Notes: generated from the letters alone by a model not told the origin. Positions 1 through 11,760 are shown, counted from the stretch's first letter. The stretch: 64,000 nt of DNA from an uncultured virus (IMG/VR IMGVR_UViG_3300028165_000034) (IMGVR_UViG_3300028165_000034:1-64000), one strand, 5' to 3'. Numbers and translations: made by a program.

Positions 1-160
1 CCCGAAGTTGTCTGCTCCCAAATACGCAGGCACGATGTTCTCCACGTTGCAGCATCCACGCATGACGTGGACGCGCAAGGCTATCTGGACTTCTGTGACT
101 ACGTCCTGCGACAACATCCGGACGTCCTGATATTCGACCCATTCAACAAGGACCGCACGT

Positions 161-454
161 ATGACGAACTTGTTTCCTTCCTCCGAGAGAGCAGCGGAGG
201 TGTTCTCGAAACTGACCACGCTGGCTGACGATATGGGTACAGTGATTGGTGAGTTCGACCAGTCAGCAACTACGTTCAAGCGCAAGGCTCCGCACGACAA
301 CGTGCGCATCCAAGTGACAGATACCGTGCTGGTGTTCTTCGCACGTGGACCGTACAAGGAACCACTGCGCGAGTTCTTCGAGAACCCTGTACATAGCAAT
401 GATCCAGTCAGACTGCGCAGTGCCATACGCGCAATGGCAATACGGGAGCCCTAG
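161..454 (+). CDS. hypothetical protein
   Basis: 97-aa ORF with AAGGA upstream, followed by a terminator hairpin. Confidence 0.6.
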   Translation: MTNLFPSSERAAEVFSKLTTLADDMGTVIGEFDQSATTFKRKAPHDNVRIQVTDTVLVFFARGPYKEPLREFFENPVHSNDPVRLRSAIRAMAIREP

Positions 455-467
455 TGGTTCCCGTTTT
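442..467 (+). terminator. rho-independent terminator
   Basis: ACGGGAGCC-ctagt-GGTTCCCGT followed by T run. Confidence 0.7.
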
Positions 468-512
468 CATTTCCCTTGGTAATTTTTCCAGCATTGACTG
501 GGAGGTTACCGT

Positions 513-1016
513 ATGCAAGGTCTGTTTGGAAACAACGCACCGATGAAGAAACGCAGACAGAAGCGTTCCGAGAAGTACAAGCAGTACCACTATGAGTTCC
601 ACGGTCGGCAACTGCTGGTTCAAGGCTACGAGCGACAAGCGCTGGAGTACCTTGTCGAGAAAGGCGGATTCGACCCGGCCGACATTCGTACCGAGTGCGA
701 AATGGGTAACGCCCTGAACATTCGCTACAAGTACGGCAAGCGCTGGCGTACCTACATGCCTGATATCTTCATTCGCAACCACAACATCATCGTGGAAGTG
801 AAGTCGAAGGCAACGATGGGCCTGATCAACAACAAGAAGCGCGGCTGGAGCATGAACAAGGCTAAGGCCAAGGCATGCCAAGAGCGCGGCTTCAAGTTCT
901 GCGTGCTGCTCATGACGGGCTCTGGTAAGCGCATCCCGTTACCGAAGCGCTGGATGTTCATGCAGAAGGATGAGTGCCTGCGCATCATGCGTGAGGAACT
1001 CGGAGTGGTGATCTAA
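513..1016 (+). CDS. PD-(D/E)xK endonuclease (TnsA N-terminal / head-completion nuclease-like)
   Basis: YMPDIFI...IIVEVKS motif and KAKACQERGFKF helix; GGGAGG RBS. Confidence 0.65.
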   Translation: MQGLFGNNAPMKKRRQKRSEKYKQYHYEFHGRQLLVQGYERQALEYLVEKGGFDPADIRTECEMGNALNIRYKYGKRWRTYMPDIFIRNHNIIVEVKSKATMGLINNKKRGWSMNKAKAKACQERGFKFCVLLMTGSGKRIPLPKRWMFMQKDECLRIMREELGVVI

Positions 1017-1024
1017 ACTGTAAA
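1016..1024 (+). promoter_or_regulatory. candidate phage promoter motif AACTGTAAA
   Basis: Identical 9-mer at 3176 and 30481, each at a gene or operon boundary. Confidence 0.5.
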
Positions 1025-1050
1025 CTCCAGACAAACCACTGGAGAATGCT

Positions 1051-1284
1051 ATGGCACATTCAGCACAAAACGACCGTAAAACGTTCGCCCTCATCCTTCT
1101 GGCTGTTGCGGGCGTGGTAGTATTCATCATGTTGATGATCTACGGGTTCACTGCATGGAGTCGTTGGATGGCAGCGACTTCCGTGCAAAAGCAAGTTTAC
1201 TCGCCGCGGCCCGGCATCGAGTGTTTCATCGCAACTGGCACGGACGGTGTCGCGACCGACTGCTACCCAATTCCCAAGAACTAA
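1051..1284 (+). CDS. small membrane protein
   Basis: One hydrophobic segment FALILLAVAGVVVFIMLMIYGF; GGAG RBS. Confidence 0.65.
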   Translation: MAHSAQNDRKTFALILLAVAGVVVFIMLMIYGFTAWSRWMAATSVQKQVYSPRPGIECFIATGTDGVATDCYPIPKN

Positions 1285-1299
1285 CAGGCTATTAAGCAA

Positions 1300-2106
1300 A
1301 TGGCAGAATTGACCATCAAGGACCTCAAAGAGGCCAAGTATAACCCGCGTGTCATCAGTGAAAAGCGACTGGACAACCTGCACCTGTCCATGACTACCTA
1401 CGGTGACCTGTCCGGCGTCGTCTTCAACAAGAAGACCCAGAACCTGATTTCCGGTCACCAGCGCTTGAAGCGTCTGCGCGGTAAGGACGTCAAGACCAAG
1501 ATCGTCACAAAGCCTGTGAAGGACGCCTTCGGTACCGTTGCAGAAGGTCACATCGTTGCGAAGACTGCGAGCGGCGAAATCCGTATCCCACTACGCATCG
1601 TGGACTGGAGCGACAAGAAATCCGAGATGGCGGCCAACATCGCAGCGAACGCGCACGGTGGCGACTTCGACCGTACCAAGCTGGGCGTTATGCTGGAGAA
1701 GCTCGACGCCGGCAAGTCGTTCGACGTGAACGTTCTGGGTATCGACCCACTGAGCCTGCGTGGCTTGATGCCAAAGATGCCAACGCTCGACTCCAAAGGT
1801 CGCGAAATCGACAACGATGGCGAAGGCAAGGAGTCGTTCCAAGAGTTCGGCGAGGACAGCTTCGAGTTCGAGCATTGCTGCCCGAAGTGCAAATTCCAGT
1901 TCAACACCAGTGCCAAGTCGCAGCCTGCGGCCAAGGCTGAGCCGAAAGCTCCGAAGCTCAAGCTGAAAGAGAAAGACGGCAAGAAGGAAAAGTCGAAAGA
2001 CAAAGAGAAGGTCAAGAGTAAGGACAAGGGTGACAAGCCCAAGAAATCCAAGCTCGCGGCTCCGAAGAAAACAGAGCTGAAAATGCCAGCGAAGAAAAAG
2101 AAGTAA
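1300..2106 (+). CDS. ParB/Srx-like N-terminal domain protein with CxxC motif and Lys-rich tail
   Basis: YNPRVI...LISGHQRL ParB signature; CCPKC; basic C-terminus. Confidence 0.75.
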   Translation: MAELTIKDLKEAKYNPRVISEKRLDNLHLSMTTYGDLSGVVFNKKTQNLISGHQRLKRLRGKDVKTKIVTKPVKDAFGTVAEGHIVAKTASGEIRIPLRIVDWSDKKSEMAANIAANAHGGDFDRTKLGVMLEKLDAGKSFDVNVLGIDPLSLRGLMPKMPTLDSKGREIDNDGEGKESFQEFGEDSFEFEHCCPKCKFQFNTSAKSQPAAKAEPKAPKLKLKEKDGKKEKSKDKEKVKSKDKGDKPKKSKLAAPKKTELKMPAKKKK

Positions 2107-2116
2107 GGACGCAGCC

Positions 2117-3130
2117 ATGGCCAATGAGAAACGCATTCCCAAGATCCCTTCGATGAAGAAGATCAACGCGCTGCCCAAGCACTTCAAAGGCATCAGTTCT
2201 TTCAGTGGCTGTGGCGGCTCGTCTACTGGCGTGAAGATGGCGGGCATCCAAGTGCTCGCGGCTACCGAGTTCATCAAGCCGGCCATCGAAACCTACCAGA
2301 AGAACCACAAAGGCACCATGGTCATCGGCGAAGACATTCGCAAGGTTGACTGGGCAGCCATTCGCAAAGAGCTTGGCCTGAAACGTGGCCAGCTCGACTT
2401 CTCGGAAGGTAGCCCACCGTGCAAGTCATTCTCCACGTCTGGTACTGGCAGTGATGACTGGGGCAAGGAGAAGCTGTACAGCGAGAACGTCTACCAGCGC
2501 ACAGACGACCTCTTCTACGAGGAAATGCGCAAGCTGGAAGCCTTCATGCCGAAGGTATTTGTTTGCGAGAATGTCAAAGGCATGGTCGAGGGTGACGCGA
2601 AAGGCTACTTCGTCGAAATTCTCCGTGACTTGAAGGCGATCGGTTACAGCGTGCGTGCGCAAGTGCTCAACGCTGCATACCTTGGTGTGGCGCAAGCCCG
2701 TGAGCGTGTGATCTTCGTCGGCGTGCGTGACGATCTGGTGAAGAAAGGTTTCGACCCTGTATTCCCAACGCCGCACAAGTATGCCATCAACGTGAATGAC
2801 GTTCTACCTCACGTGGCGTACCTGAAGTCGAAGCACAAGGGTGACCTGAAGTACGTGCCTGCGTCGATCCCGTCACCTACAATCGTGGCTTCGGATGGCA
2901 CCAACAGCGAGACTGCTGGATTCTCCTCAGGTGGATTCATCGAGACGCTGAGCGGTGAGCGCCGTAAGTACACCATCGACGAGTTGAAGACCATCTTCAC
3001 CTTCCCCGAAGACTTCATCTTCACTGGTACCTACAAGCAGCAGTTTGAGCGCATCGGCCGCTCGGTACCACCGCTCATGATGTACCACGTTTGCCGCGAG
3101 CTTCGCCGCAATATCCTCGAAAAGCTGTAA
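2117..3130 (+). CDS. C5-cytosine DNA methyltransferase family; candidate carboxymethyltransferase
   Basis: Motif I FSGCGG, IV PPCKSFS, VI ENVKG, VIII QARERVIFVG, X IGRSVPP (Arg where Asn is usual). Confidence 0.92.
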   Translation: MANEKRIPKIPSMKKINALPKHFKGISSFSGCGGSSTGVKMAGIQVLAATEFIKPAIETYQKNHKGTMVIGEDIRKVDWAAIRKELGLKRGQLDFSEGSPPCKSFSTSGTGSDDWGKEKLYSENVYQRTDDLFYEEMRKLEAFMPKVFVCENVKGMVEGDAKGYFVEILRDLKAIGYSVRAQVLNAAYLGVAQARERVIFVGVRDDLVKKGFDPVFPTPHKYAINVNDVLPHVAYLKSKHKGDLKYVPASIPSPTIVASDGTNSETAGFSSGGFIETLSGERRKYTIDELKTIFTFPEDFIFTGTYKQQFERIGRSVPPLMMYHVCRELRRNILEKL

Positions 3131-3136
3131 GCCTCG

Positions 3137-3168
3137 CACAAAGGGAGCCATCGCGCTCCCTTTTTGTG
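3137..3168 (+). terminator. rho-independent terminator
   Basis: AAAGGGAGC-catcgc-GCTCCCTTTTT. Confidence 0.75.
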
Positions 3169-3175
3169 GCCTTGA

Positions 3176-3184
3176 AACTGTAAA
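3176..3184 (+). promoter_or_regulatory. candidate phage promoter motif AACTGTAAA
   Basis: Directly after a terminator and upstream of the cmoA-like gene. Confidence 0.5.
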
Positions 3185-3227
3185 TGACCAGTAAGCCCAC
3201 ATGGGCATCAAACATGGAGTTACGGAC

Positions 3228-4013
3228 ATGCAACCAATCGAAACCCTGCGCGACGATCACGTACCCGGCCAGAAGTGGGAGTTCAACGAGGACGTCGCCA
3301 AGAAGTTTGACAACATGCTGGAGCGCAGCATCCCCGGCTATGGTTCGATGCGTGAATTGGTGTGGCGACTGGGCAAGAACTTCGTCAAGACACCGTGCAA
3401 CGTCATTGACCTCGGTGCAAGCCGCGGTGAAGCGAGTGCCAAGTTCATTGGTGCGTTCCCAGAAGCCCAGTTCTATCTGAGCGAAATCTCGGACCCGATG
3501 CTTGAAGAAATGCGTGGGCGCTTCGCCGACCAGTTCAACGTACACCCGTGCAGCTACGACCTGCGCAAGAAGGCCAAAGAGATTGCCGACGCCATTCGCT
3601 GGCCGAGTGCGCACATGAGTGGCAGTGTGGAATTCCACAAAGTGCAGACGCTGCCGACTAACCTCGTGCTGTCGATCCTTACCATGATCTTCGTGCCGAT
3701 CAATTTCCGACCGTCCATCCTAAAGGGCGTGTACGATGGTCTGGAATCTGGCGGTGCCTTCTTCATGGTAGAGAAGGTGCTGGGCAACACGGCAGTGATG
3801 CAAGAACTGCTGGTCGATGCCTACCATGAGTACAAGCACGACAACGGCTATAGCTGGGAAGACATTGAGCGCAAGCGTGCAGCCCTCGAAGGTGTTCAGG
3901 TCCCAGTGACCCATGAGAACAATATCGAAATGCTGCGCACCGCTGGCTTCCGTAGCGTCGAGACGTTCTTCCGCAACCTCAACTTCGTGGGCTACATCGC
4001 CATCAAGGACTAA
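3228..4013 (+). CDS. cmoA: CmoA-like carboxy-S-adenosyl-L-methionine synthase (alternative start 3201)
   Basis: WEFNEDVAKKFDNMLERSIPGY, DLGASRG SAM-binding motif, and ERKRAALEGV matching the CmoA KRxxLE segment; GGAG upstream of 3228. Confidence 0.8.
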   Translation: MQPIETLRDDHVPGQKWEFNEDVAKKFDNMLERSIPGYGSMRELVWRLGKNFVKTPCNVIDLGASRGEASAKFIGAFPEAQFYLSEISDPMLEEMRGRFADQFNVHPCSYDLRKKAKEIADAIRWPSAHMSGSVEFHKVQTLPTNLVLSILTMIFVPINFRPSILKGVYDGLESGGAFFMVEKVLGNTAVMQELLVDAYHEYKHDNGYSWEDIERKRAALEGVQVPVTHENNIEMLRTAGFRSVETFFRNLNFVGYIAIKD

Positions 4014-4016
4014 GCA

Positions 4017-4469
4017 ATGCGCGAACTCCAATTGCTCCGCAAGCGTGTGAAAACGCTGTGGAAAATGGAAGAGGGCCTGAGCCCGAATGAGCGTCGCCTT
4101 CATCAGTGGCAAGTGTCTGCAACCCAAGCAGGCATCATGTACACCGTTGGTAAGGGCGATGCCAACACGTTCTTCTATGCCGTCAACGGCAACGATATGA
4201 AGTTCGTGATGCCAGACGTGATGATGAAGTTGCTGGACGATTGGACCAACAGCGATTACGTGGCGTACACGATCACCAAGAAGAAGGATATCAGCGGCAT
4301 GCCTTTGCGCACGTCGCCAGCCGCCTTCCTTAAAGTGACGAAGGACAAGTACCTGGGTTACTACATCGTGGGCATCAAGTCCAACGGTGACATTGTTCGC
4401 CTGCACAAACTTGAAGGCGGACTCCAGGGTAATCACTGGGTAAAATTCAAAGGCAAGAAGAAACGCTAG
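4017..4469 (+). CDS. hypothetical protein within the modification cluster
   Basis: 150-aa ORF tightly coupled to both neighbours. Confidence 0.7.
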   Translation: MRELQLLRKRVKTLWKMEEGLSPNERRLHQWQVSATQAGIMYTVGKGDANTFFYAVNGNDMKFVMPDVMMKLLDDWTNSDYVAYTITKKKDISGMPLRTSPAAFLKVTKDKYLGYYIVGIKSNGDIVRLHKLEGGLQGNHWVKFKGKKKR

Positions 4470-4477
4470 GAGCGATC

Positions 4478-5335
4478 ATGGATCAGAAGACGCGAGCCAG
4501 AAAGCTCCGTAAAGCCCTTGTTGAACGGGCAGCGTCGTACGGCGTGAAGAAGGTAGCCGTGCCAATGAGCAGCGGTGTGGACAGTCACTGCGCCCTGTTC
4601 GCTTGCCTTGAGGCTGGGTTGAAGCCGCATGTGTACAGCTTCCACCTCGAAGGTGTCGAGAGCCGCGACGTGCGCATCGCCCAACTGACTGCGAAAGAGT
4701 TCGGACTGCCGTTTACCAAAGTCACATTGCCCACTGGTCAGAAGCGTTTGATGAAGGACGTCGTGAAGCTCGCCGAGTTTGGCTGCCGATCGAAGACCGA
4801 CTTCGAGTGCTTCTGGCCAATGTACCATCTGCTGCCCAAGATCAAGGAAGACGTGTTCTTCACTGGTCACGGTGCAGACAGCCTGTACTGCCTGAGTCGC
4901 AAAGCCTGCCAGCACTACGCTGGGCGCGAAGACGAATTCCGTGCGCTCGCATTCTCGTCCAACAAAGCCTTCCAGAAGGGCTTGATCGAGAAGTGGTGTG
5001 CAGAGAACGGCGGTGACCTTGCGTACTGCCCGATCTTCTTCACACCGAAGATTCTGAAAATCTTCCAGGGTGCGACCCCTGCTGACCTGAACAAGCCTAT
5101 TCAGAAGGCAGTCAGCCGCATGGCATTCGAGGAGTATTTCGAGCGCGTGCGTGTGTACGTTCACCAACCGTTTCAGTTGGGTGACACTGGCATCAAGGCT
5201 GGCTTCGAGGAGCATCTGCTCGAAAGCCCACTGAACACCAAAGGCTACAAGTCTGTAGTCGGCATCTACAACGAGCTGGTGCGTACTCACGGTCCAGCAG
5301 TAAGCGAACCAGATACAGGGTGGGACGACGAATGA
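4478..5335 (+). CDS. asparagine synthetase-like ATP pyrophosphatase (amide ligase) lacking a glutaminase domain
   Basis: PP-loop MSSGVDS near the N-terminus, FTGHGADSLY (AsnB GxGADE-like), QKAVSRMAF; only 285 aa. Confidence 0.8.
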   Translation: MDQKTRARKLRKALVERAASYGVKKVAVPMSSGVDSHCALFACLEAGLKPHVYSFHLEGVESRDVRIAQLTAKEFGLPFTKVTLPTGQKRLMKDVVKLAEFGCRSKTDFECFWPMYHLLPKIKEDVFFTGHGADSLYCLSRKACQHYAGREDEFRALAFSSNKAFQKGLIEKWCAENGGDLAYCPIFFTPKILKIFQGATPADLNKPIQKAVSRMAFEEYFERVRVYVHQPFQLGDTGIKAGFEEHLLESPLNTKGYKSVVGIYNELVRTHGPAVSEPDTGWDDE

Positions 5336-5967
5336 GCACCGTGATGACCAAGTACACTCGGATCAACCTGAACACGGCCGAGCTGTACTTCAAACAAGCC
5401 TGCGCCGAGTTGTACCCAACGTTCGATCATCCGAACAAGGCACAGTTGCGCGCAGCCTACGACAAGATCATGGACGGCGGTGTTGATCGTCCAGAATTTG
5501 AGCGTCCTGCTGAGTGTCCAGCACTGACGCCTCTCCAGATCGAGTTCGCAGAAGGTGTGGCCAAGCTGGTTGAAGAATACTTCGACTCGGCATCGCCAAG
5601 CGCGACCGCCGTGTACACCTTCCTCGCGTTCGAAGGCCTCGACCCGAAAGAAGGCTACCACATCAGCGAAGACAAGCATGTGATCGACCTGTTCGCTCGC
5701 TTCGTTGACCTAGGCAAAGGTGCCTACGACTACATCGCTCGCCGTGCAATCCAGCAGACCCATGTCGATCCCCGTTTCATCGTGATCCGTTTGGCTGACG
5801 ACTGCAAGCGCTACGGCGTGCGTACTCTGCGTGCTCCAACGTCGGAAGGTGAAGTGATGTTCAGCCTCGATCCGCTTGAGCACCACAAGAAGTTCGACAA
5901 TCAAATCTTCATCCCAGCGATCGGCGGTTACTACGGCATCGTTGGCAAGACTCGTTCCGAGGGCTGA
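5332..5967 (+). CDS. hypothetical protein
   Basis: ATGA overlap with upstream stop. Confidence 0.7.
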   Translation: MSTVMTKYTRINLNTAELYFKQACAELYPTFDHPNKAQLRAAYDKIMDGGVDRPEFERPAECPALTPLQIEFAEGVAKLVEEYFDSASPSATAVYTFLAFEGLDPKEGYHISEDKHVIDLFARFVDLGKGAYDYIARRAIQQTHVDPRFIVIRLADDCKRYGVRTLRAPTSEGEVMFSLDPLEHHKKFDNQIFIPAIGGYYGIVGKTRSEG

Positions 5968-5969
5968 CC

Positions 5970-6572
5970 ATGTCTCAGTACAAGCTGAAAGATTTCCCAA
6001 TGGAGGAATACGACTATCCAACTGCGCAGATCATGCGCGATGGAGGTATCGCCTTCGACACCCGCTACGACTACGTTGCTAGTTCGTTTCTCGATGGTCT
6101 GGTAAACTACGGGAAGAACCACGTCGCGTTCCTGCTGGCGCGCTACGGTCTTGAAAAGCCAGAGGGTGAGCGCGTTGACAATGACGAAGACAACGATGCC
6201 AACTGGATCGCACCTACTGTCGAGAACTACCAAGCGTTTGCAGATGCTGCAACCGCGAAACACCACTTCAAGGCCAAAGGCGACGACTGGTTGGTACTGT
6301 ACGAAACCGACAACAGCTACTTTCTGATGTGGTACGATCAGGACAGTAGCGATTGCAGTGTTGAGCGTTACAGCCGCCGCTCGCTTGCAGAGCCGCAGTA
6401 CGGCATCAAGACACTCGACGAGTTTGTCGAAGCCCGCATCGCCATGTTCCGTGAAGCGCACTTCCGTGACGATCCACGTGGCGGTTACTATCCACGCGGG
6501 CAAACCCCGCAAGAGCGTGTGGACATTCTCGTTCGCGCTGCCAACAACCCACGTGGCTGGATCAGCTCGTAA
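5970..6572 (+). CDS. hypothetical protein
   Basis: 200-aa ORF in operon, typical codon usage. Confidence 0.7.
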   Translation: MSQYKLKDFPMEEYDYPTAQIMRDGGIAFDTRYDYVASSFLDGLVNYGKNHVAFLLARYGLEKPEGERVDNDEDNDANWIAPTVENYQAFADAATAKHHFKAKGDDWLVLYETDNSYFLMWYDQDSSDCSVERYSRRSLAEPQYGIKTLDEFVEARIAMFREAHFRDDPRGGYYPRGQTPQERVDILVRAANNPRGWISS

Positions 6573-6581
6573 GGAATTCCC

Positions 6582-7607
6582 ATGGCCAAGAAAGACAAAG
6601 AGAAGAAAAAGGAGAAGAAGTCCAAGTCTCCTGCGATGATGGCGATCCAGAAGGACAGCTACATCATCGTGCGTGTTGGCACCAAGCATCATCTGTGCCT
6701 CGCGATCAACCCTGAGCGCAATCGCGCAGTGATCGACCGCACTCTGGCTGACGAAGAACACCAGACCATTGAGTACGATGACCAAACACTGGTTGCCAAC
6801 CTCGGTCTGAACCCGAAGCCAGGTGGTAATGCGTTCGGCGTGAAGATCAACCCATACATCACCAGCGTCGATTCCAAGTACGGACCGATGCACTTCTTCC
6901 GTGTGCTGGAAGACCTGGAGAAGAAAGCGCTCAAGTCTGCGCTGCGTCGTACCTACGATGCGATGCTGGAGAACAACCTGAACATCTTCCCGCTTGGCAG
7001 CATCAAGCTGTTCCCGAAGCGTGGAAAGTACGCAGGCTGCTACCACATCAAGCGCTCCATGAGCGAGTTCACTGACGGCATCGACCTGTACCCAGACACG
7101 TTCACCGACCGTGCGTACAACGAGTATGTCCTGTACCACGAGTACGCGCACGCAGTCTGGTTCCGCATGGTGCCTGGTGCGTACAAGGCGCGCTGGATCA
7201 AGCTCTACCACAAGCGTCTGGAGCTGAACAGCATCCTGAAAGATCGGTTGGAGTCGATGCTTGGTGAACTGATCGAGTTCAGCGGCACGTTCAAGGAATT
7301 CTATAAAGAGCTTGAAGATCAAGACTCTCTGGTGTTCCGCGAAGTGCTCAGCCACTACAAGCGCTACCACAAGCTCGACGGCCGCAGCCTCGAAATCCTC
7401 TATCTTGAGGACAGCGAGAAGTTCGCCTCGATGTGGCCGAAGCGTACAACGATCGTGGAGTCGCGTCCTGATCTGTCCGAATACTCCATGGTGAGCCCGG
7501 ACGAGTTCTTTGCAGAGGCATTCGCATTCCACATGACTGGGAAGACGATGCCTAAAGACATTACCAAGGCTATGGAGAAAACCCTGAAGGCGCTCCAGAG
7601 CATCTAA
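6582..7607 (+). CDS. zincin-like metallopeptidase
   Basis: HEYAH (HExxH) with downstream SEYSMVSPDEFFAEAF. Confidence 0.65.
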   Translation: MAKKDKEKKKEKKSKSPAMMAIQKDSYIIVRVGTKHHLCLAINPERNRAVIDRTLADEEHQTIEYDDQTLVANLGLNPKPGGNAFGVKINPYITSVDSKYGPMHFFRVLEDLEKKALKSALRRTYDAMLENNLNIFPLGSIKLFPKRGKYAGCYHIKRSMSEFTDGIDLYPDTFTDRAYNEYVLYHEYAHAVWFRMVPGAYKARWIKLYHKRLELNSILKDRLESMLGELIEFSGTFKEFYKELEDQDSLVFREVLSHYKRYHKLDGRSLEILYLEDSEKFASMWPKRTTIVESRPDLSEYSMVSPDEFFAEAFAFHMTGKTMPKDITKAMEKTLKALQSI

Positions 7608-7619
7608 AGGAGTTCACTG

Positions 7620-8186
7620 ATGAACGACCTCGCTACCTTGAAGTCCCTTACGAACATTATGCCGATCGCTACTCTCGGCAATCGCCCGCGTGACATTGCG
7701 TTCAACCGCTTCAAGTTTGAACGCCTCAGCGCGCATGGCTCTGTGGAAAACGGCATCGTCCTGACAATCAACGACGACGCCTTCGAAGATGTTGAGGAGT
7801 GGATGGACTACATCCGCTCGCCCATTGGAACTCAGACGGTGCATCGCACTGCTACAGCTGAGGACCTGCAGAGCCTATCGTTGGCTATGCCTGCAAATAT
7901 GCTGCGCAAACGCAACGTCACCAACTACGTGACTATGCTGACCGACGACAAAGTGGTGTTTCGTTTCGTGACGGCTCGGTGGCGAGGCGTGGACTATCCG
8001 ATCGAAGAACTCAATCGGTACTTCACCCAGCTGCGACTCGCGTACTACCTGAGCGACGAAGTGGGCGTTATTGATCTGCGAATTGCGCTGGGTAGTGTAA
8101 ACCATCATTACACCAGCATACATCAACTCGAGGACATCCTGTACACGATGGCCTACCATTTCTTCCGCGAAGATACGGAGCTCTAA
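7620..8186 (+). CDS. hypothetical protein
   Basis: AAGGAG RBS, 188 aa. Confidence 0.7.
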   Translation: MNDLATLKSLTNIMPIATLGNRPRDIAFNRFKFERLSAHGSVENGIVLTINDDAFEDVEEWMDYIRSPIGTQTVHRTATAEDLQSLSLAMPANMLRKRNVTNYVTMLTDDKVVFRFVTARWRGVDYPIEELNRYFTQLRLAYYLSDEVGVIDLRIALGSVNHHYTSIHQLEDILYTMAYHFFREDTEL

Positions 8187-8190
8187 TAGC

Positions 8191-9327
8191 ATGGCGAAGA
8201 AGCAGAAGGCTGCGATTGAAGAGACGGCATCAGCCACTCAGTCTCTCGCCGTTACTCACCGACCGCGCACACTCAAAGACGTTGTTGGTCAAGACGACAG
8301 CGTTTCCATCATCAAGGGTATGATTAAGCGCAACCGTTTCCCGGGCGCGATCCTGATTAGCGGTGTCACAGGCACTGGCAAGACGACACTGGCGCGTATC
8401 CTTGCGACGTACATGAACGCCGACGATCCGAAGAACGTCCGTGAGTCCATGGCGTACAAGCTGGGCGAGAAGCATCCAGACGTCACCATCGTCAACGCAG
8501 GTACTCACGGTAAGGTCGAGGACATTCGCTCTCTCGTCCGTGGTGCCAACGCTGCGCCGCACACCAACTACCGCGTGTTCATCATCGACGAGGCTCACAA
8601 GCTCACCGGTGCGTCCGCAGAAGCGCTGCTGGTTCCTATCGAAGAGCCGAGCATCCACACCATCTGGATTCTCTGCACGACGAACCCGGAGAAACTGGTC
8701 GACACCATCGCAGGTCGTTGCACCAAGATCAACCTGAACCGCATCGAACCAGAGCACATCGTCTCTCGCCTGCAGTACATCGTCGAGCAAGAGAAGATGG
8801 ACTTCGTTAAAGGCAAGGAAGGTAAGAAGGCGCTGGAGCTGATCGCTGCCATGTGCGACGGCAGTATGCGCAACGCCATTGCCCACCTTGAAGCTGTGAT
8901 GTTCGCAGGCTTCGGCGGCAAGAAGCTCGACGCAGAAGGTGCACTCAAGGCATACGTCGAATCGTCGGCAGCAGACCTCGACAAGGCCGCAGCGTCTGTC
9001 GTTGCGGCCACGATGAACCTCGACCTGCCTGGGTTGATCGCCATCATCCGTAAAGCGCAGAACCCACGCGGCATCGTGTACAAGACACGCGCCCTGCTCG
9101 ACTACCTGATTGGCGCAAAGACCAAGACGGCGAAGTTCCTGCCGTACTCCGGGCGCATCTTCGAGCAGCTTGCAAAGAAAATGGATATCAAGTACGGGCT
9201 CAAGGGCCTGGTGATGCTCCAGCACACCATCGTTGAACTGGAGCTGCAACTCAACTCGACCAGCATCGACGAATCGGTGCTCCTGCAAACCTATCTCGGC
9301 CGTTTCGTGATCGAGAACAAAGGCTAA
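8191..9327 (+). CDS. dnaX: clamp loader AAA+ subunit, DNA polymerase III gamma/tau-like
   Basis: HRPRTLKDVVGQ, Walker A GVTGTGKTT, IIDEAHKL, IEEP, TIAGRC, GSMRNA. Confidence 0.9.
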   Translation: MAKKQKAAIEETASATQSLAVTHRPRTLKDVVGQDDSVSIIKGMIKRNRFPGAILISGVTGTGKTTLARILATYMNADDPKNVRESMAYKLGEKHPDVTIVNAGTHGKVEDIRSLVRGANAAPHTNYRVFIIDEAHKLTGASAEALLVPIEEPSIHTIWILCTTNPEKLVDTIAGRCTKINLNRIEPEHIVSRLQYIVEQEKMDFVKGKEGKKALELIAAMCDGSMRNAIAHLEAVMFAGFGGKKLDAEGALKAYVESSAADLDKAAASVVAATMNLDLPGLIAIIRKAQNPRGIVYKTRALLDYLIGAKTKTAKFLPYSGRIFEQLAKKMDIKYGLKGLVMLQHTIVELELQLNSTSIDESVLLQTYLGRFVIENKG

Positions 9328-9333
9328 TCGAAC

Positions 9334-11760
9334 ATGCTCAAGCTGACTGACGTTGAACTCACCGACGTCGTCAACTTCAAAAAAGTGAAACTGGACATTA
9401 CCCGACATCCTTTTACGGTCATCACTGGCCATAATAAGGATAGTCGCATTTCCACAGAGACCAGCAACGGTGCGGGCAAGTCCCTGCTGTTGTCCTCTGT
9501 GCCAAACCTTCGTTATGAAGCCGCTCCCCTCGCCACCACCAAAAGCAAGAAAGATATGCTTGAGACGGCGAAGTCGAGCATCCGAATTGGGCTTATCGGA
9601 AATGACGGCAAGCCCTATTCGATCACTCAAACAAATTCCAAGTTCATCATTGAATGTGACGGCACCGACAAAGAAGTCAGAACCATCCCTCTCCAGAAGA
9701 AGGAGATTGAGCGGATTTTCCCGCTGACTGAGGATGAGTTCTATTCGTATGTGTACCTGCAGTCGCAACGCCCGCTGTCGTTCCAAAGCGACAAGCCAGC
9801 GGCGCGTCTCCAGTACATCACCTCGCTGTTCCAACTGGACGTGTACGATCGGTTGAAGCGGCACTTCACCCAGAAGCTGGGCGAAATCAAGAACAAGCAG
9901 GTCGAGTTTGACGTGGTGAATGCGCAGTTGGTGAAAATCAACGGCATCCTCGAACGTCTCGACTGGGACAAGGAGAAGGCGGAGAAGCTGGAAGAAGCAC
10001 GTGGTGTCATCAAGGCGCTGGGTGACGAATCCAAGAAGCTGCACTCCAAGATCGAAAAGCTCAAGGGTGCCATCGCCGCAAGCGAGCGAATCTCCAAGCT
10101 CAAGAAGCAACGGAAGAAGCTCAAGCCCAAGCTGTCACGCAAAGCTGCACAGGCCGAGTTGCAACTGCACGAAGACCTGGCCGAGTACGAGTCCGACCTG
10201 AAGTCGTTCCGCGCTCAGGTTAAGCAATACACCAACCAGCTTACCGAAATCGGTGAAGTGAGCGCGCCTGCTGTGCTAAAGGCGCACATGGCCAAGATCG
10301 AGAAGGAGCTGGAGAAGGAAGAAGAGTGGTTGACCGAAGCGCATAGCAAGCGCCAGCAGGTCAAGCAGATCGCCAAAGACTTGGAAGAGGCGGAAGAAGC
10401 CTACAAGGCCGTTGGTGGTAAGCTCAAAGAGGTGAACGTTGCTGTCGCATTCGGCACTGCCGAGTTCGAGCGCGTGCTCCTGCAATACCAACCTGTGATG
10501 CAACTGGCTTCGATTGTCGATGACTGTGCAGATGGTGAGTGTCCAACTTGCCAGCAGACGGTTAACGTCAAGAAGTTCAGGAAGCAGATTGATCAGGCGA
10601 AAGGCAAGATCAAGGAAGCCAAGCGGTCCATCAAGATCGCTGACGCCGCCGTGGTGCTCGCCAAACTGCGTACCAAAAGCCGCAAGCTGGAGTTCAACGA
10701 GGAAGAGTTCGTTGAGCGCCGTGAGAAGTATCGCAAGCGCGATGCCAAGCTTGACGAGCTCCGTGAGAAGCTGAACGATGCCCGCCAAGCGCAGAAGTTG
10801 AAAGATCGACTGGGTGAACTGAAACAGCCGAAGGAGCCTAAGGCGATTCCGAACTACACTCGGAAGGACCTACGCGCCATGCTGGAAGATCACTCGGAGA
10901 TTGCACGCATCGACTCCGTGCTTGAAAGTTTATTGGAAGATTACGGAACTATTGATGTAGATTCGTTGTCTAATAAGCTAGCAGAGGCAAAGCAGCGGTA
11001 TGCAAAAGTCGAGCGCAAGTACAGCCGTGCGCAGGACATTGTAAGCTCCTACGGTTCCAAAGCCAGTGAGTTCAAGGTGCTCAAGCGCGAGCGCAACGAC
11101 GCCCTTGTGAAGCTGGAAGACCTGAAGCCCATCATTGCTCAACGCGACCTCATTAAGTCGCTGGAGAAGGCGTACTCCGCCAAGGGCTTGAAAGTAAACG
11201 CCGCGAACGAGATTCTCTTCCAGATCGAGGAGCAACTCAATCGCAACTCCCACCTGATCTTTGCCGAGCCGTTCAAGTTCAACGTCTTCGCAAAGGAGAA
11301 TGGTGTGCATTGCATCGTTGACCGTGGCAACGGGAAGAAGCCGACTGACGTCCGCTTGCTCTCTGGTGCCGAGAGTGACTGTTTCAGGTTGCTCTGGTTC
11401 TTTGTAATGCTCATTATGGTGGAAGATGATCGTCGTACAAACTTCGCCGTACTGGATGAACCAGATAGCCACATGGACCCGACCACTCGGTCGTTGTTCG
11501 TTGAGCGCTACCTGCCAGCACTGCGTTCGCTGGTGCCGCATGTGTTCCTGATTACTCCTCTGGATAAACACCTGTACACCGAATGCGCGTACCTGACGGT
11601 TGTCAAACACAAAGGCGTTTCACAGGTCATGGAGAACTACAATGAAGATGGTGAGCTTCGGGTGCCACGCGCCAGACGAAGTGCTGGTGAGGCTGAATCG
11701 AGAAAAGGGCGTAAAAAGAAGCCACGTTCTGATGATCGAGCCCGAAGGAAAGCTGCCTAA
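9334..11760 (+). CDS. sbcC: SbcC/Rad50-like ATPase (recombination nuclease subunit)
   Basis: NGAGKS Walker A, coiled coil with CPTC zinc hook, LSGAE signature, LDEPDSHMD. Confidence 0.88.
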   Translation: MLKLTDVELTDVVNFKKVKLDITRHPFTVITGHNKDSRISTETSNGAGKSLLLSSVPNLRYEAAPLATTKSKKDMLETAKSSIRIGLIGNDGKPYSITQTNSKFIIECDGTDKEVRTIPLQKKEIERIFPLTEDEFYSYVYLQSQRPLSFQSDKPAARLQYITSLFQLDVYDRLKRHFTQKLGEIKNKQVEFDVVNAQLVKINGILERLDWDKEKAEKLEEARGVIKALGDESKKLHSKIEKLKGAIAASERISKLKKQRKKLKPKLSRKAAQAELQLHEDLAEYESDLKSFRAQVKQYTNQLTEIGEVSAPAVLKAHMAKIEKELEKEEEWLTEAHSKRQQVKQIAKDLEEAEEAYKAVGGKLKEVNVAVAFGTAEFERVLLQYQPVMQLASIVDDCADGECPTCQQTVNVKKFRKQIDQAKGKIKEAKRSIKIADAAVVLAKLRTKSRKLEFNEEEFVERREKYRKRDAKLDELREKLNDARQAQKLKDRLGELKQPKEPKAIPNYTRKDLRAMLEDHSEIARIDSVLESLLEDYGTIDVDSLSNKLAEAKQRYAKVERKYSRAQDIVSSYGSKASEFKVLKRERNDALVKLEDLKPIIAQRDLIKSLEKAYSAKGLKVNAANEILFQIEEQLNRNSHLIFAEPFKFNVFAKENGVHCIVDRGNGKKPTDVRLLSGAESDCFRLLWFFVMLIMVEDDRRTNFAVLDEPDSHMDPTTRSLFVERYLPALRSLVPHVFLITPLDKHLYTECAYLTVVKHKGVSQVMENYNEDGELRVPRARRSAGEAESRKGRKKKPRSDDRARRKAA

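Follow-up and report, generated by a model that had tools for sequence, protein, structure and literature searches.

A candidate CmoA-CmoX-CmoY-type cytosine hypermodification cassette in an uncultured soil relative of jumbo phage PaBG

A row of five genes near the start of the IMG/VR virus record IMGVR_UViG_3300028165_000034 probably encodes a post-replicative cytosine hypermodification system of the type in which a carboxy-S-adenosylmethionine (Cx-SAM) synthase, CmoA, an altered DNA cytosine C5 transferase, CmoX, and an amide ligase, CmoY, act on the same base; we put the probability of this reading at roughly 85%. The window, that is, the whole stretch of DNA analysed here, is the first 64 kb (64,000 nucleotides) of a record of 119,354 bases that is estimated to be 45% complete. 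Its carrier is an uncultured soil relative of the Pseudomonas jumbo phage PaBG (KF147891), which shares 73.8% nucleotide identity with it across 98% of window positions 1300-5335. The five genes are separated by gaps of 10, 70, 3 and 8 bp, and their order, with a ParB-like gene followed by cmoX, cmoA, a gene for a 150-aa protein and cmoY, matches that of PaBG genes 176-180. A first-pass annotation of the window had described a C5 methyltransferase gene, a CmoA-like gene and, one open reading frame (ORF) later, an asparagine-synthetase (AsnB)-type gene, and the ORFs and family matches listed in Table 1 bear out all three; it had missed the ParB-like gene, which lies 10 bp upstream of the transferase in the same cassette.

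The CmoA-CmoX-CmoY pathway was established by experiment in Synechococcus phage S-B43 (Yang et al., Nat Commun, December 2025; PMC12783734). As described in the main text of that paper, CmoA of S-B43 makes Cx-SAM (kcat of SpCmoA, 2.33 per second), CmoX uses it to form 5-carboxymethylcytosine (5cxmC) at GC, and CmoY ligates glycine to this base with ATP (PMC12783734). The first-pass annotation had pointed to a report on CmoX and CmoY and had cautioned that the chemistry might be only partly new, and rightly so, as the pathway has been published together with its wide spread among phages (PMC12783734). The cassette is a further example of a published system, and the chemistry itself is not new. 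Our literature search found no further paper on a natural phage system of this kind beyond PMC12783734. PaBG, Pseudomonas, Erwinia and the word 'jumbo' are absent from the main text of that paper, and the part of its source data that we consulted has no PaBG, Pseudomonas or Erwinia entry.

By analogy with S-B43, the CmoA homologue would convert SAM and host prephenate into carboxy-SAM. CmoX would flip out the target cytosine, its Cys102 would attack C6, and the carboxymethyl group would pass to C5 while Arg315 holds the carboxylate of the cofactor, so that the product in DNA would be 5-carboxymethylcytosine. CmoY would then use ATP to adenylate the carboxylate of 5cxmC and couple it to an amine, forming an amide. 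The expected benefit is that phage DNA would be shielded from host restriction. This route from Cx-SAM through 5-carboxymethylcytosine to an amide had been put forward from the sequence of the window, and it is supported on sequence grounds, since its steps match those of the S-B43 pathway, all three proteins are homologous to those of S-B43 and the diagnostic arginine is present.

The evidence presented here consists of homology, diagnostic residues, gene linkage and co-occurrence. For the last of these, IMG/VR was scanned with a profile of the ligase, which returned 492 relatives, and the best 80 loci were examined. A search for the three genes in other phage neighbourhoods had been proposed as a check, and among these best 80 of 492 ligase loci a CmoX homologue was found in 65 and a CmoA homologue in 60.

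Transferase and carboxy-SAM synthase

The match of the transferase to PF00145 spans profile positions 1-322 of 324, and its score on TIGR00675 (143.8 bits) is above the cut-off of 100.65. Its best sequence match in the PDB is SpCmoX itself (8YF3, E 1e-57), followed by HaeIII methylase (E 6e-23), and pairwise alignment with SpCmoX gave 36% identity (E 1e-67). The residues S99-P100-P101-C102 fall on the SPPC catalytic motif of SpCmoX (S95-C98), a motif that is invariant across 29 relatives, and the catalytic cysteine was present in all 64 alignable CmoX relatives from the ligase loci, the other 16 loci having no match at that place. The cofactor contacts F29, E51, F52 and D73 correspond to F25, E47, F48 and D69 of SpCmoX, and all four are invariant in the alignment of relatives; the protein also carries E151-N152-V153. 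A second PF00145 gene was not found in the 119,354-base record.

The diagnostic arginine is R315 ('ERIGRSVPP'), which aligns with R350 of SpCmoX ('ERVGRMVPP') at the position of the motif-X asparagine (N304 in HhaI), where HaeIII has the usual Asn ('IGNAVP'). In SpCmoX, R350 contacts the carboxymethyl group; the wild-type enzyme uses Cx-SAM only, and the R350N variant uses neither cofactor, according to the main text of the S-B43 study (PMC12783734). The same study cites engineered M.MpeI N374K as a C5 methyltransferase that can use Cx-SAM owing to a basic residue in place of the motif-X Asn (PMC12783734), although that enzyme differs from the present one in being engineered, in targeting CG and in having no dedicated CmoA or ligase. 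Arginine stands at the R350 position in 57 of 57 alignable CmoX relatives, with 23 loci having no match there. Judged by these residues, the window transferase is an altered C5 transferase of the CmoX type, with carboxymethyl transfer as its predicted activity.

The CmoA homologue matches TIGR00740, the CmoA equivalog model, over profile positions 14-239 of 239. It is 30% identical to SpCmoA over residues 36-269 (E 5e-31), and its PDB matches are YecO/CmoA (1IM8, E 2.7e-27) and E. coli CmoA (4GEK, E 3.6e-25, residues 25-269). By homology, the protein is of the CmoA type and is a predicted carboxy-SAM synthase.

A CmoA homologue in a phage could also be thought to serve the tRNA modification cmo5U through a CmoB of the host, in which case the neighbouring transferase would be an ordinary SAM-dependent methylase of the Dcm type. 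The annotation of PaBG lends itself to this explanation: genes 176-180 are described there as ParB-like nuclease, DNA cytosine methylase, tRNA (cmo5U34)-methyltransferase, hypothetical protein and asparagine synthase, the third being the CmoA homologue, and tRNA genes precede the PaBG cassette by about 3.3 kb. In the part of the PaBG genome paper that we consulted, asparagine synthase is placed under metabolism, and the terms methylase, methyltransferase and cmo5U are absent (PMC7412058). However, the motif-X Asn is replaced by Arg, an exchange shared with SpCmoX, an enzyme that made no use of SAM, and CmoA is tightly linked to transferases of this Arg type among the alignable relatives. The absence of cmoB from the window, noted at first pass, was confirmed, and a search with TIGR00452 found none in the 119,354-base record either, a negative that does not establish its absence from the full genome because the record is estimated to be only 45% complete. 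Together, these points leave very little room for a role in tRNA modification, to which we give hardly any weight.

Ligase

The score of the ligase on PF00733 (Asn_synthase), 29.4 bits, is above the cut-off of 21 and covers the synthetase part only; this was the sole Pfam match, and no glutaminase domain was found in the 285 residues. The protein shares 33% of its residues with SpCmoY (E 7e-35) and 81.6% with the ligase of PaBG. Starting from the single sequence, no solved structure was detectable. An AlphaFold2 model built with 31 homologues had a predicted local distance difference test score (pLDDT) of 92.3 and a predicted template modelling score (pTM) of 0.89, and the top Foldseek matches of this model were to two asparagine synthetases, E. 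coli AsnB (1CT9, E 1.3e-08) and human ASNS (TMq up to 0.73), and to the beta-lactam and carbapenam synthetases. A profile built from the 31 homologues aligns with AsnB residues 206-442 (E 1.8e-10), and in this alignment the loop S31-x-G33-x-D35-S36 corresponds to the SGGLDS PP-loop of AsnB, D134 to D351 and K210 to K449, while His131 stands at the position of AsnB Glu348 and Glu110 at that of Arg325. The aligned residues are read here by the roles that we take them to have in AsnB. What the window ligase has in common with AsnB and beta-lactam synthetase is the fold of the C-terminal synthetase domain and its adenylation machinery; it is without the N-terminal glutaminase domain of AsnB, and its carboxylate substrate would be a DNA base. 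From homology and the structural model, the gene product is a stand-alone AsnB-type synthetase domain and a predicted amide ligase of the CmoY type. Glutamine-derived ammonia is an unlikely source of the amine because there is no glutaminase domain.

It could be asked whether the ligase acts on DNA at all, since the end product might be plain 5-carboxymethylcytosine and the AsnB-like protein might act on a nucleotide, a tRNA or a metabolite. Cassettes with CmoX and CmoA and without a ligase do exist: the counts given for phage sequences in the main text of the S-B43 study are 5,615 candidate CmoX, 4,257 CmoA and 2,251 ligases, with 1,660 ParBc in CmoX contigs (PMC12783734). Weak similarity of the window ligase to QueC-type PP-loop families was seen as well (phrog_1550, E 3.3e-06). 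Against this, it is homologous to SpCmoY, which acts on 5cxmC in DNA, the great majority of the ligase loci examined hold a CmoX homologue (the 65 of 80 given above), and virion DNA of S-B43 contained the glycine amide only and no 5cxmC, as reported in the main text of that study (PMC12783734). We regard an unamidated end product as improbable, and amidation by the CmoY-type ligase as the better account of the cassette.

Shared with the S-B43 pathway are the three enzyme families, the SPPC motif, the arginine at R350, the cofactor contacts, the stand-alone AsnB domain and the lack of CmoB. The cassette also has a ParB-like neighbour, comparable to the ParBc proteins reported from CmoX contigs (PMC12783734). 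The two systems differ in that identity between their proteins is only 30-36%, and in that the gene order is A-Y-X in S-B43 and ParB-X-A-150aa-Y in the window. The window also has a shorter CmoX recognition domain that does not align, a ligase that falls outside the SpCmoY component of a similarity network and the extra 150-aa gene, and its carrier is a soil PaBG-like jumbo phage where S-B43 is a cyanophage.

Points against the reading, and the choice of amine

Several observations weigh against the assignment of the cassette to the CmoA-CmoX-CmoY type, or against parts of it. The chemistry, the amine, the target motif and the roles of the ParB-like and 150-aa proteins are inferred, the chemistry from the S-B43 experiments. 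The CmoA homologue scores 130.1 bits on TIGR00740, below the curated NCBIfam cut-off of 193.3. SpCmoA, which is active in experiment, scores 115.6 bits and is likewise below it; because this active enzyme fails too, the cut-off, which was evidently set with cellular CmoA in mind, does not distinguish between phage CmoA and proteins that are not CmoA. No chorismate mutase gene was found in the 119,354-base record, itself a fragment, and prephenate must therefore be supplied by the host. In the transferase, the region between motifs VIII and IX, responsible for target recognition, falls about 35 residues short of its SpCmoX counterpart and cannot be aligned with it, so the GC motif of SpCmoX cannot be transferred to the window enzyme. 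This short region is common to the window, PaBG and the IMG/VR loci L059, L034 and L041, and does not align with the group of SpCmoX-like proteins.

The linkage of the genes is also incomplete. No CmoX homologue was found in 15 of the 80 ligase loci and no CmoA homologue in 20, many of these loci being short contigs (4-7 kb), and the Erwinia phages have the transferase some 17 kb from the ligase. Erwinia and Dickeya jumbo phages, including Erwinia phage pEa_SNUABM_5 (locus L004), have a CmoA-ligase pair at about 12-14 kb of the record, with the 150-aa gene 0.9-2.2 kb after the ligase, and Erwinia phage pEa_SNUABM_22 has a match to the ParB-like protein and the transferase near 29-31 kb; since the transferase region is at 29-31 kb and the CmoA-ligase pair at 12-14 kb, the cassette is split in these phages by about 17 kb.

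The last two of these points concern the ligase and bear on the amine. A similarity network was built from 175 ligase sequences (151 distinct), namely those of the window, S-B43, PaBG, two other phages, the 80 IMG/VR loci and 90 database matches, at an EFI score threshold of 56, as in PMC12783734. At this threshold the window ligase and SpCmoY belonged to separate components, of 139 and 22 sequences respectively, which merged when the score was lowered to 40; as the sample is biased to relatives of the window, the separation is a hint only. The window group also differs from the SpCmoY group at individual positions, with Q166 in place of Gly, D236 in place of a gap, and Y257 and S259 in place of Arg. 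The last two correspond to R251 and R253, which are invariant in the SpCmoY group, and because they are replaced by Tyr and Ser glycine is not assured as the amine.

The same chemistry could accordingly proceed with another amine, such as a different amino acid, a polyamine or free ammonia, which would give a final base other than the 5gcxmC of S-B43. The separation in the network and the replaced residues speak for it, as does the main text of the S-B43 study, which reports ligase clusters with distinct pocket residues (PMC12783734). A further argument comes from two IMG/VR loci, L059 (4558-8670) and L060 (the same contigs as L097 and L098), whose proteins are 84% (CmoX), 75% (ParB-like) and 63% (CmoA) identical in amino acids to those of the window. 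Their ligase, encoded between CmoX and CmoA, is only 36% identical to the window ligase and 26% to SpCmoY, and a 223-aa 2OG-Fe(II) oxygenase (PF13640, E 1.6e-14) comes after it. Compared at the level of sequence, these loci show a ligase module that has been exchanged within one phage clade, and this exchange points to a different final base in L059 and L060. On the other side, the network is small and biased (175 sequences against 2,251 in PMC12783734), so that the separation need not hold in the larger set, and the largest ligase cluster, along with several smaller ones, keeps the residues that bind the glycine carboxylate, according to the main text of that study (PMC12783734). We consider an amine other than glycine a serious possibility that falls somewhat short of even odds, within a system that in either case would be of the CmoA-CmoX-CmoY type.

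Accessory genes and surroundings

The ParB-like protein, whose gene is syntenic with PaBG gp176, matches phrog_498, a DNA methyltransferase profile, at positions 37-181 (E 2e-19) in addition to PHROG 620, 'ParB-like partition protein', and had no Pfam match at E <= 0.01. It has 243 homologues, and a precomputed PF02195 assignment was present on one of 120 among the matches listed. The N-terminal 200 residues are well conserved, and the N-terminal part has a domain of the ParB/Srx type; G52, H53, Q54 and R55, as well as C194, P195 and C197, are invariant in 37 sequences. The C-terminal third combines an acidic stretch with a conserved CPxC and a long tail rich in Lys.

Prediction of a complex between residues 1-210 of the ParB-like protein and CmoX gave a median score of 0.59 over three runs, where the best of three controls gave 0.00, with a contact agreement between runs of at least 40% and a pLDDT of 66-68 for the partner. 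In a calibration that holds here only roughly, as our own alignments were used, 116 of 157 solved complexes passed, as did 2 of 215 mismatched pairs; scores of 0.60 or less include only 18 of the passing solved complexes and both passing mismatches. These predictions weakly suggest that the ParB-like protein may be a partner or activator of CmoX. A ParB-like protein, ParB176, has been reported to be required for the activity of the phage thymine dioxygenase 5mYOX176 on double-stranded DNA (PNAS 2026; PMC13229309, as described in the part of the paper that we consulted). The likeness is that a ParB-like gene stands beside a post-replicative DNA-modifying enzyme of a phage; the differences are that the partner enzyme belongs to another family and that SpCmoX is active without any ParB, according to the main text of the S-B43 study (PMC12783734).

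No Pfam family was found for the 150-aa protein or for 47 relatives. Its AlphaFold2 model has a pLDDT of 95.9, and this model had no match in the PDB by Foldseek at E <= 0.001. The best VIA-align match, Pur-alpha (Z 6.3, rmsd 3.2 over 78 residues, residues 1-79), is below the level at which that tool's scores carry meaning, the sole match in BFVD was PaBG's own copy, and scores in the ESM Atlas were at most 0.87, to clusters without names. The name 'antitoxin YwqK', which the JGI source gives to a single relative, was rejected, as no profile supports it.

Homologues of the 150-aa protein occur in 53 phage records, of PaBG and of Erwinia, Dickeya and Yersinia jumbo phages. A ligase homologue is present in 58 records, all but five of which fall in the same PaBG/Erwinia/Dickeya/Yersinia host groups. 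For IMG/VR, the profile was made from an alignment of 12 sequences, an alignment of 48 having no sufficiently conserved stretch. All 11 loci found with it have the gene in a ParB/CmoX/CmoA/CmoY cassette; five of them are copies of the window's locus (L010-L014), and the gene is present at 99-100% amino-acid identity in five IMG/VR contigs. It adjoins CmoA or CmoY in at least seven distinct gene orders. Because all of these phages may be related to one another, this co-occurrence is not independent evidence. The 150-aa protein is a candidate for a further accessory gene, one that the main text of PMC12783734 does not mention.

From these neighbours a five-part variant of the system can be imagined for PaBG-like and related jumbo phages, in which the ParB-like protein would bind CmoX and activate or target it, the 150-aa accessory would be needed, and both a motif other than GC and an amine other than glycine would be used. 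We find this combination doubtful, with a clear balance of chances against it; if it were true, virion DNA of these phages would contain a cytosine derivative not yet described. PaBG, which grows on P. aeruginosa PAO1, is the nearest named relative of the window's carrier and a cultivable entry point, and as it has the same cassette it could serve as a test system for the pathway in a jumbo phage whose host is Gram-negative. The clade is well suited to questions left by the 2025 paper, namely the amines of ligases other than SpCmoY, the ParB-like neighbour and further accessory genes.

Table 1. Cassette genes and other features of the window. E, expectation value of the family match.
Feature	Position	Strand	Family match or remark
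TnsA/Vsr-like nuclease, 167 aa	513-1016	+	DUF7487 E 1.8e-15; Tn7_TnsA-like_N E 1.4e-05
ParB-like protein, 268 aa	1300-2106	+	PHROG 620 E 5.7e-33
Predicted CmoX-type DNA cytosine C5-carboxymethyltransferase, 337 aa	2117-3130	+	PF00145 E 1.5e-49
Predicted CmoA-type carboxy-SAM synthase, 270 aa	3201-4013	+	TIGR00740 E 1e-37
150-aa protein	4017-4469	+	phrog_23597 E 2.9e-47
Predicted CmoY-type ATP-dependent amide ligase, 285 aa	4478-5335	+	PF00733 E 8.4e-07
ORF pair 3' of the ligase	5320-5967 and 5970-6572	+	First overlaps ligase by 16 bp
DnaX-like clamp-loader gene	8191-9327	+	
ORF of 2007 aa	23364-29387	+	SNF2-related domain; helicase C-terminal domain
Thymidylate-synthase homologue, 389 aa	62198-63367	-	Pfam match, residues 19-389

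The TnsA/Vsr-like endonuclease encoded just upstream of the cassette has relatives at 73-78% identity in PaBG, L059, L060 and L064. For the two ORFs that follow the ligase gene, searches of Pfam, NCBIfam and PHROG gave no match; relatives of the first, 28-42% identical to it, occur in PaBG and the same three loci. Farther along the window, the 2007-aa ORF has as its sole family matches the two domains given in Table 1, both in the middle of the protein, and the thymidylate-synthase homologue matches a 266-position profile with about 100 extra residues. In a scan of positions 1-9400, promoter and terminator sites were no more numerous than in shuffled sequence.

The full stretch is present in six runs of soil DNA and in 14 recorded as soil metatranscriptomes. 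All 24 runs listed are stored as Logan contigs, a form that carries no base-modification signal, and the contigs from four runs had zero differences from window positions 1-9400. In the metatranscriptome runs X13, X16 and X19, contigs of 28-35 kb extend across the whole of positions 1-9400 at a word depth of 200-2954, which is not evidence of expression of the cassette. Such long contigs from RNA libraries suggest either phage DNA in the libraries or transcription of the whole genome.

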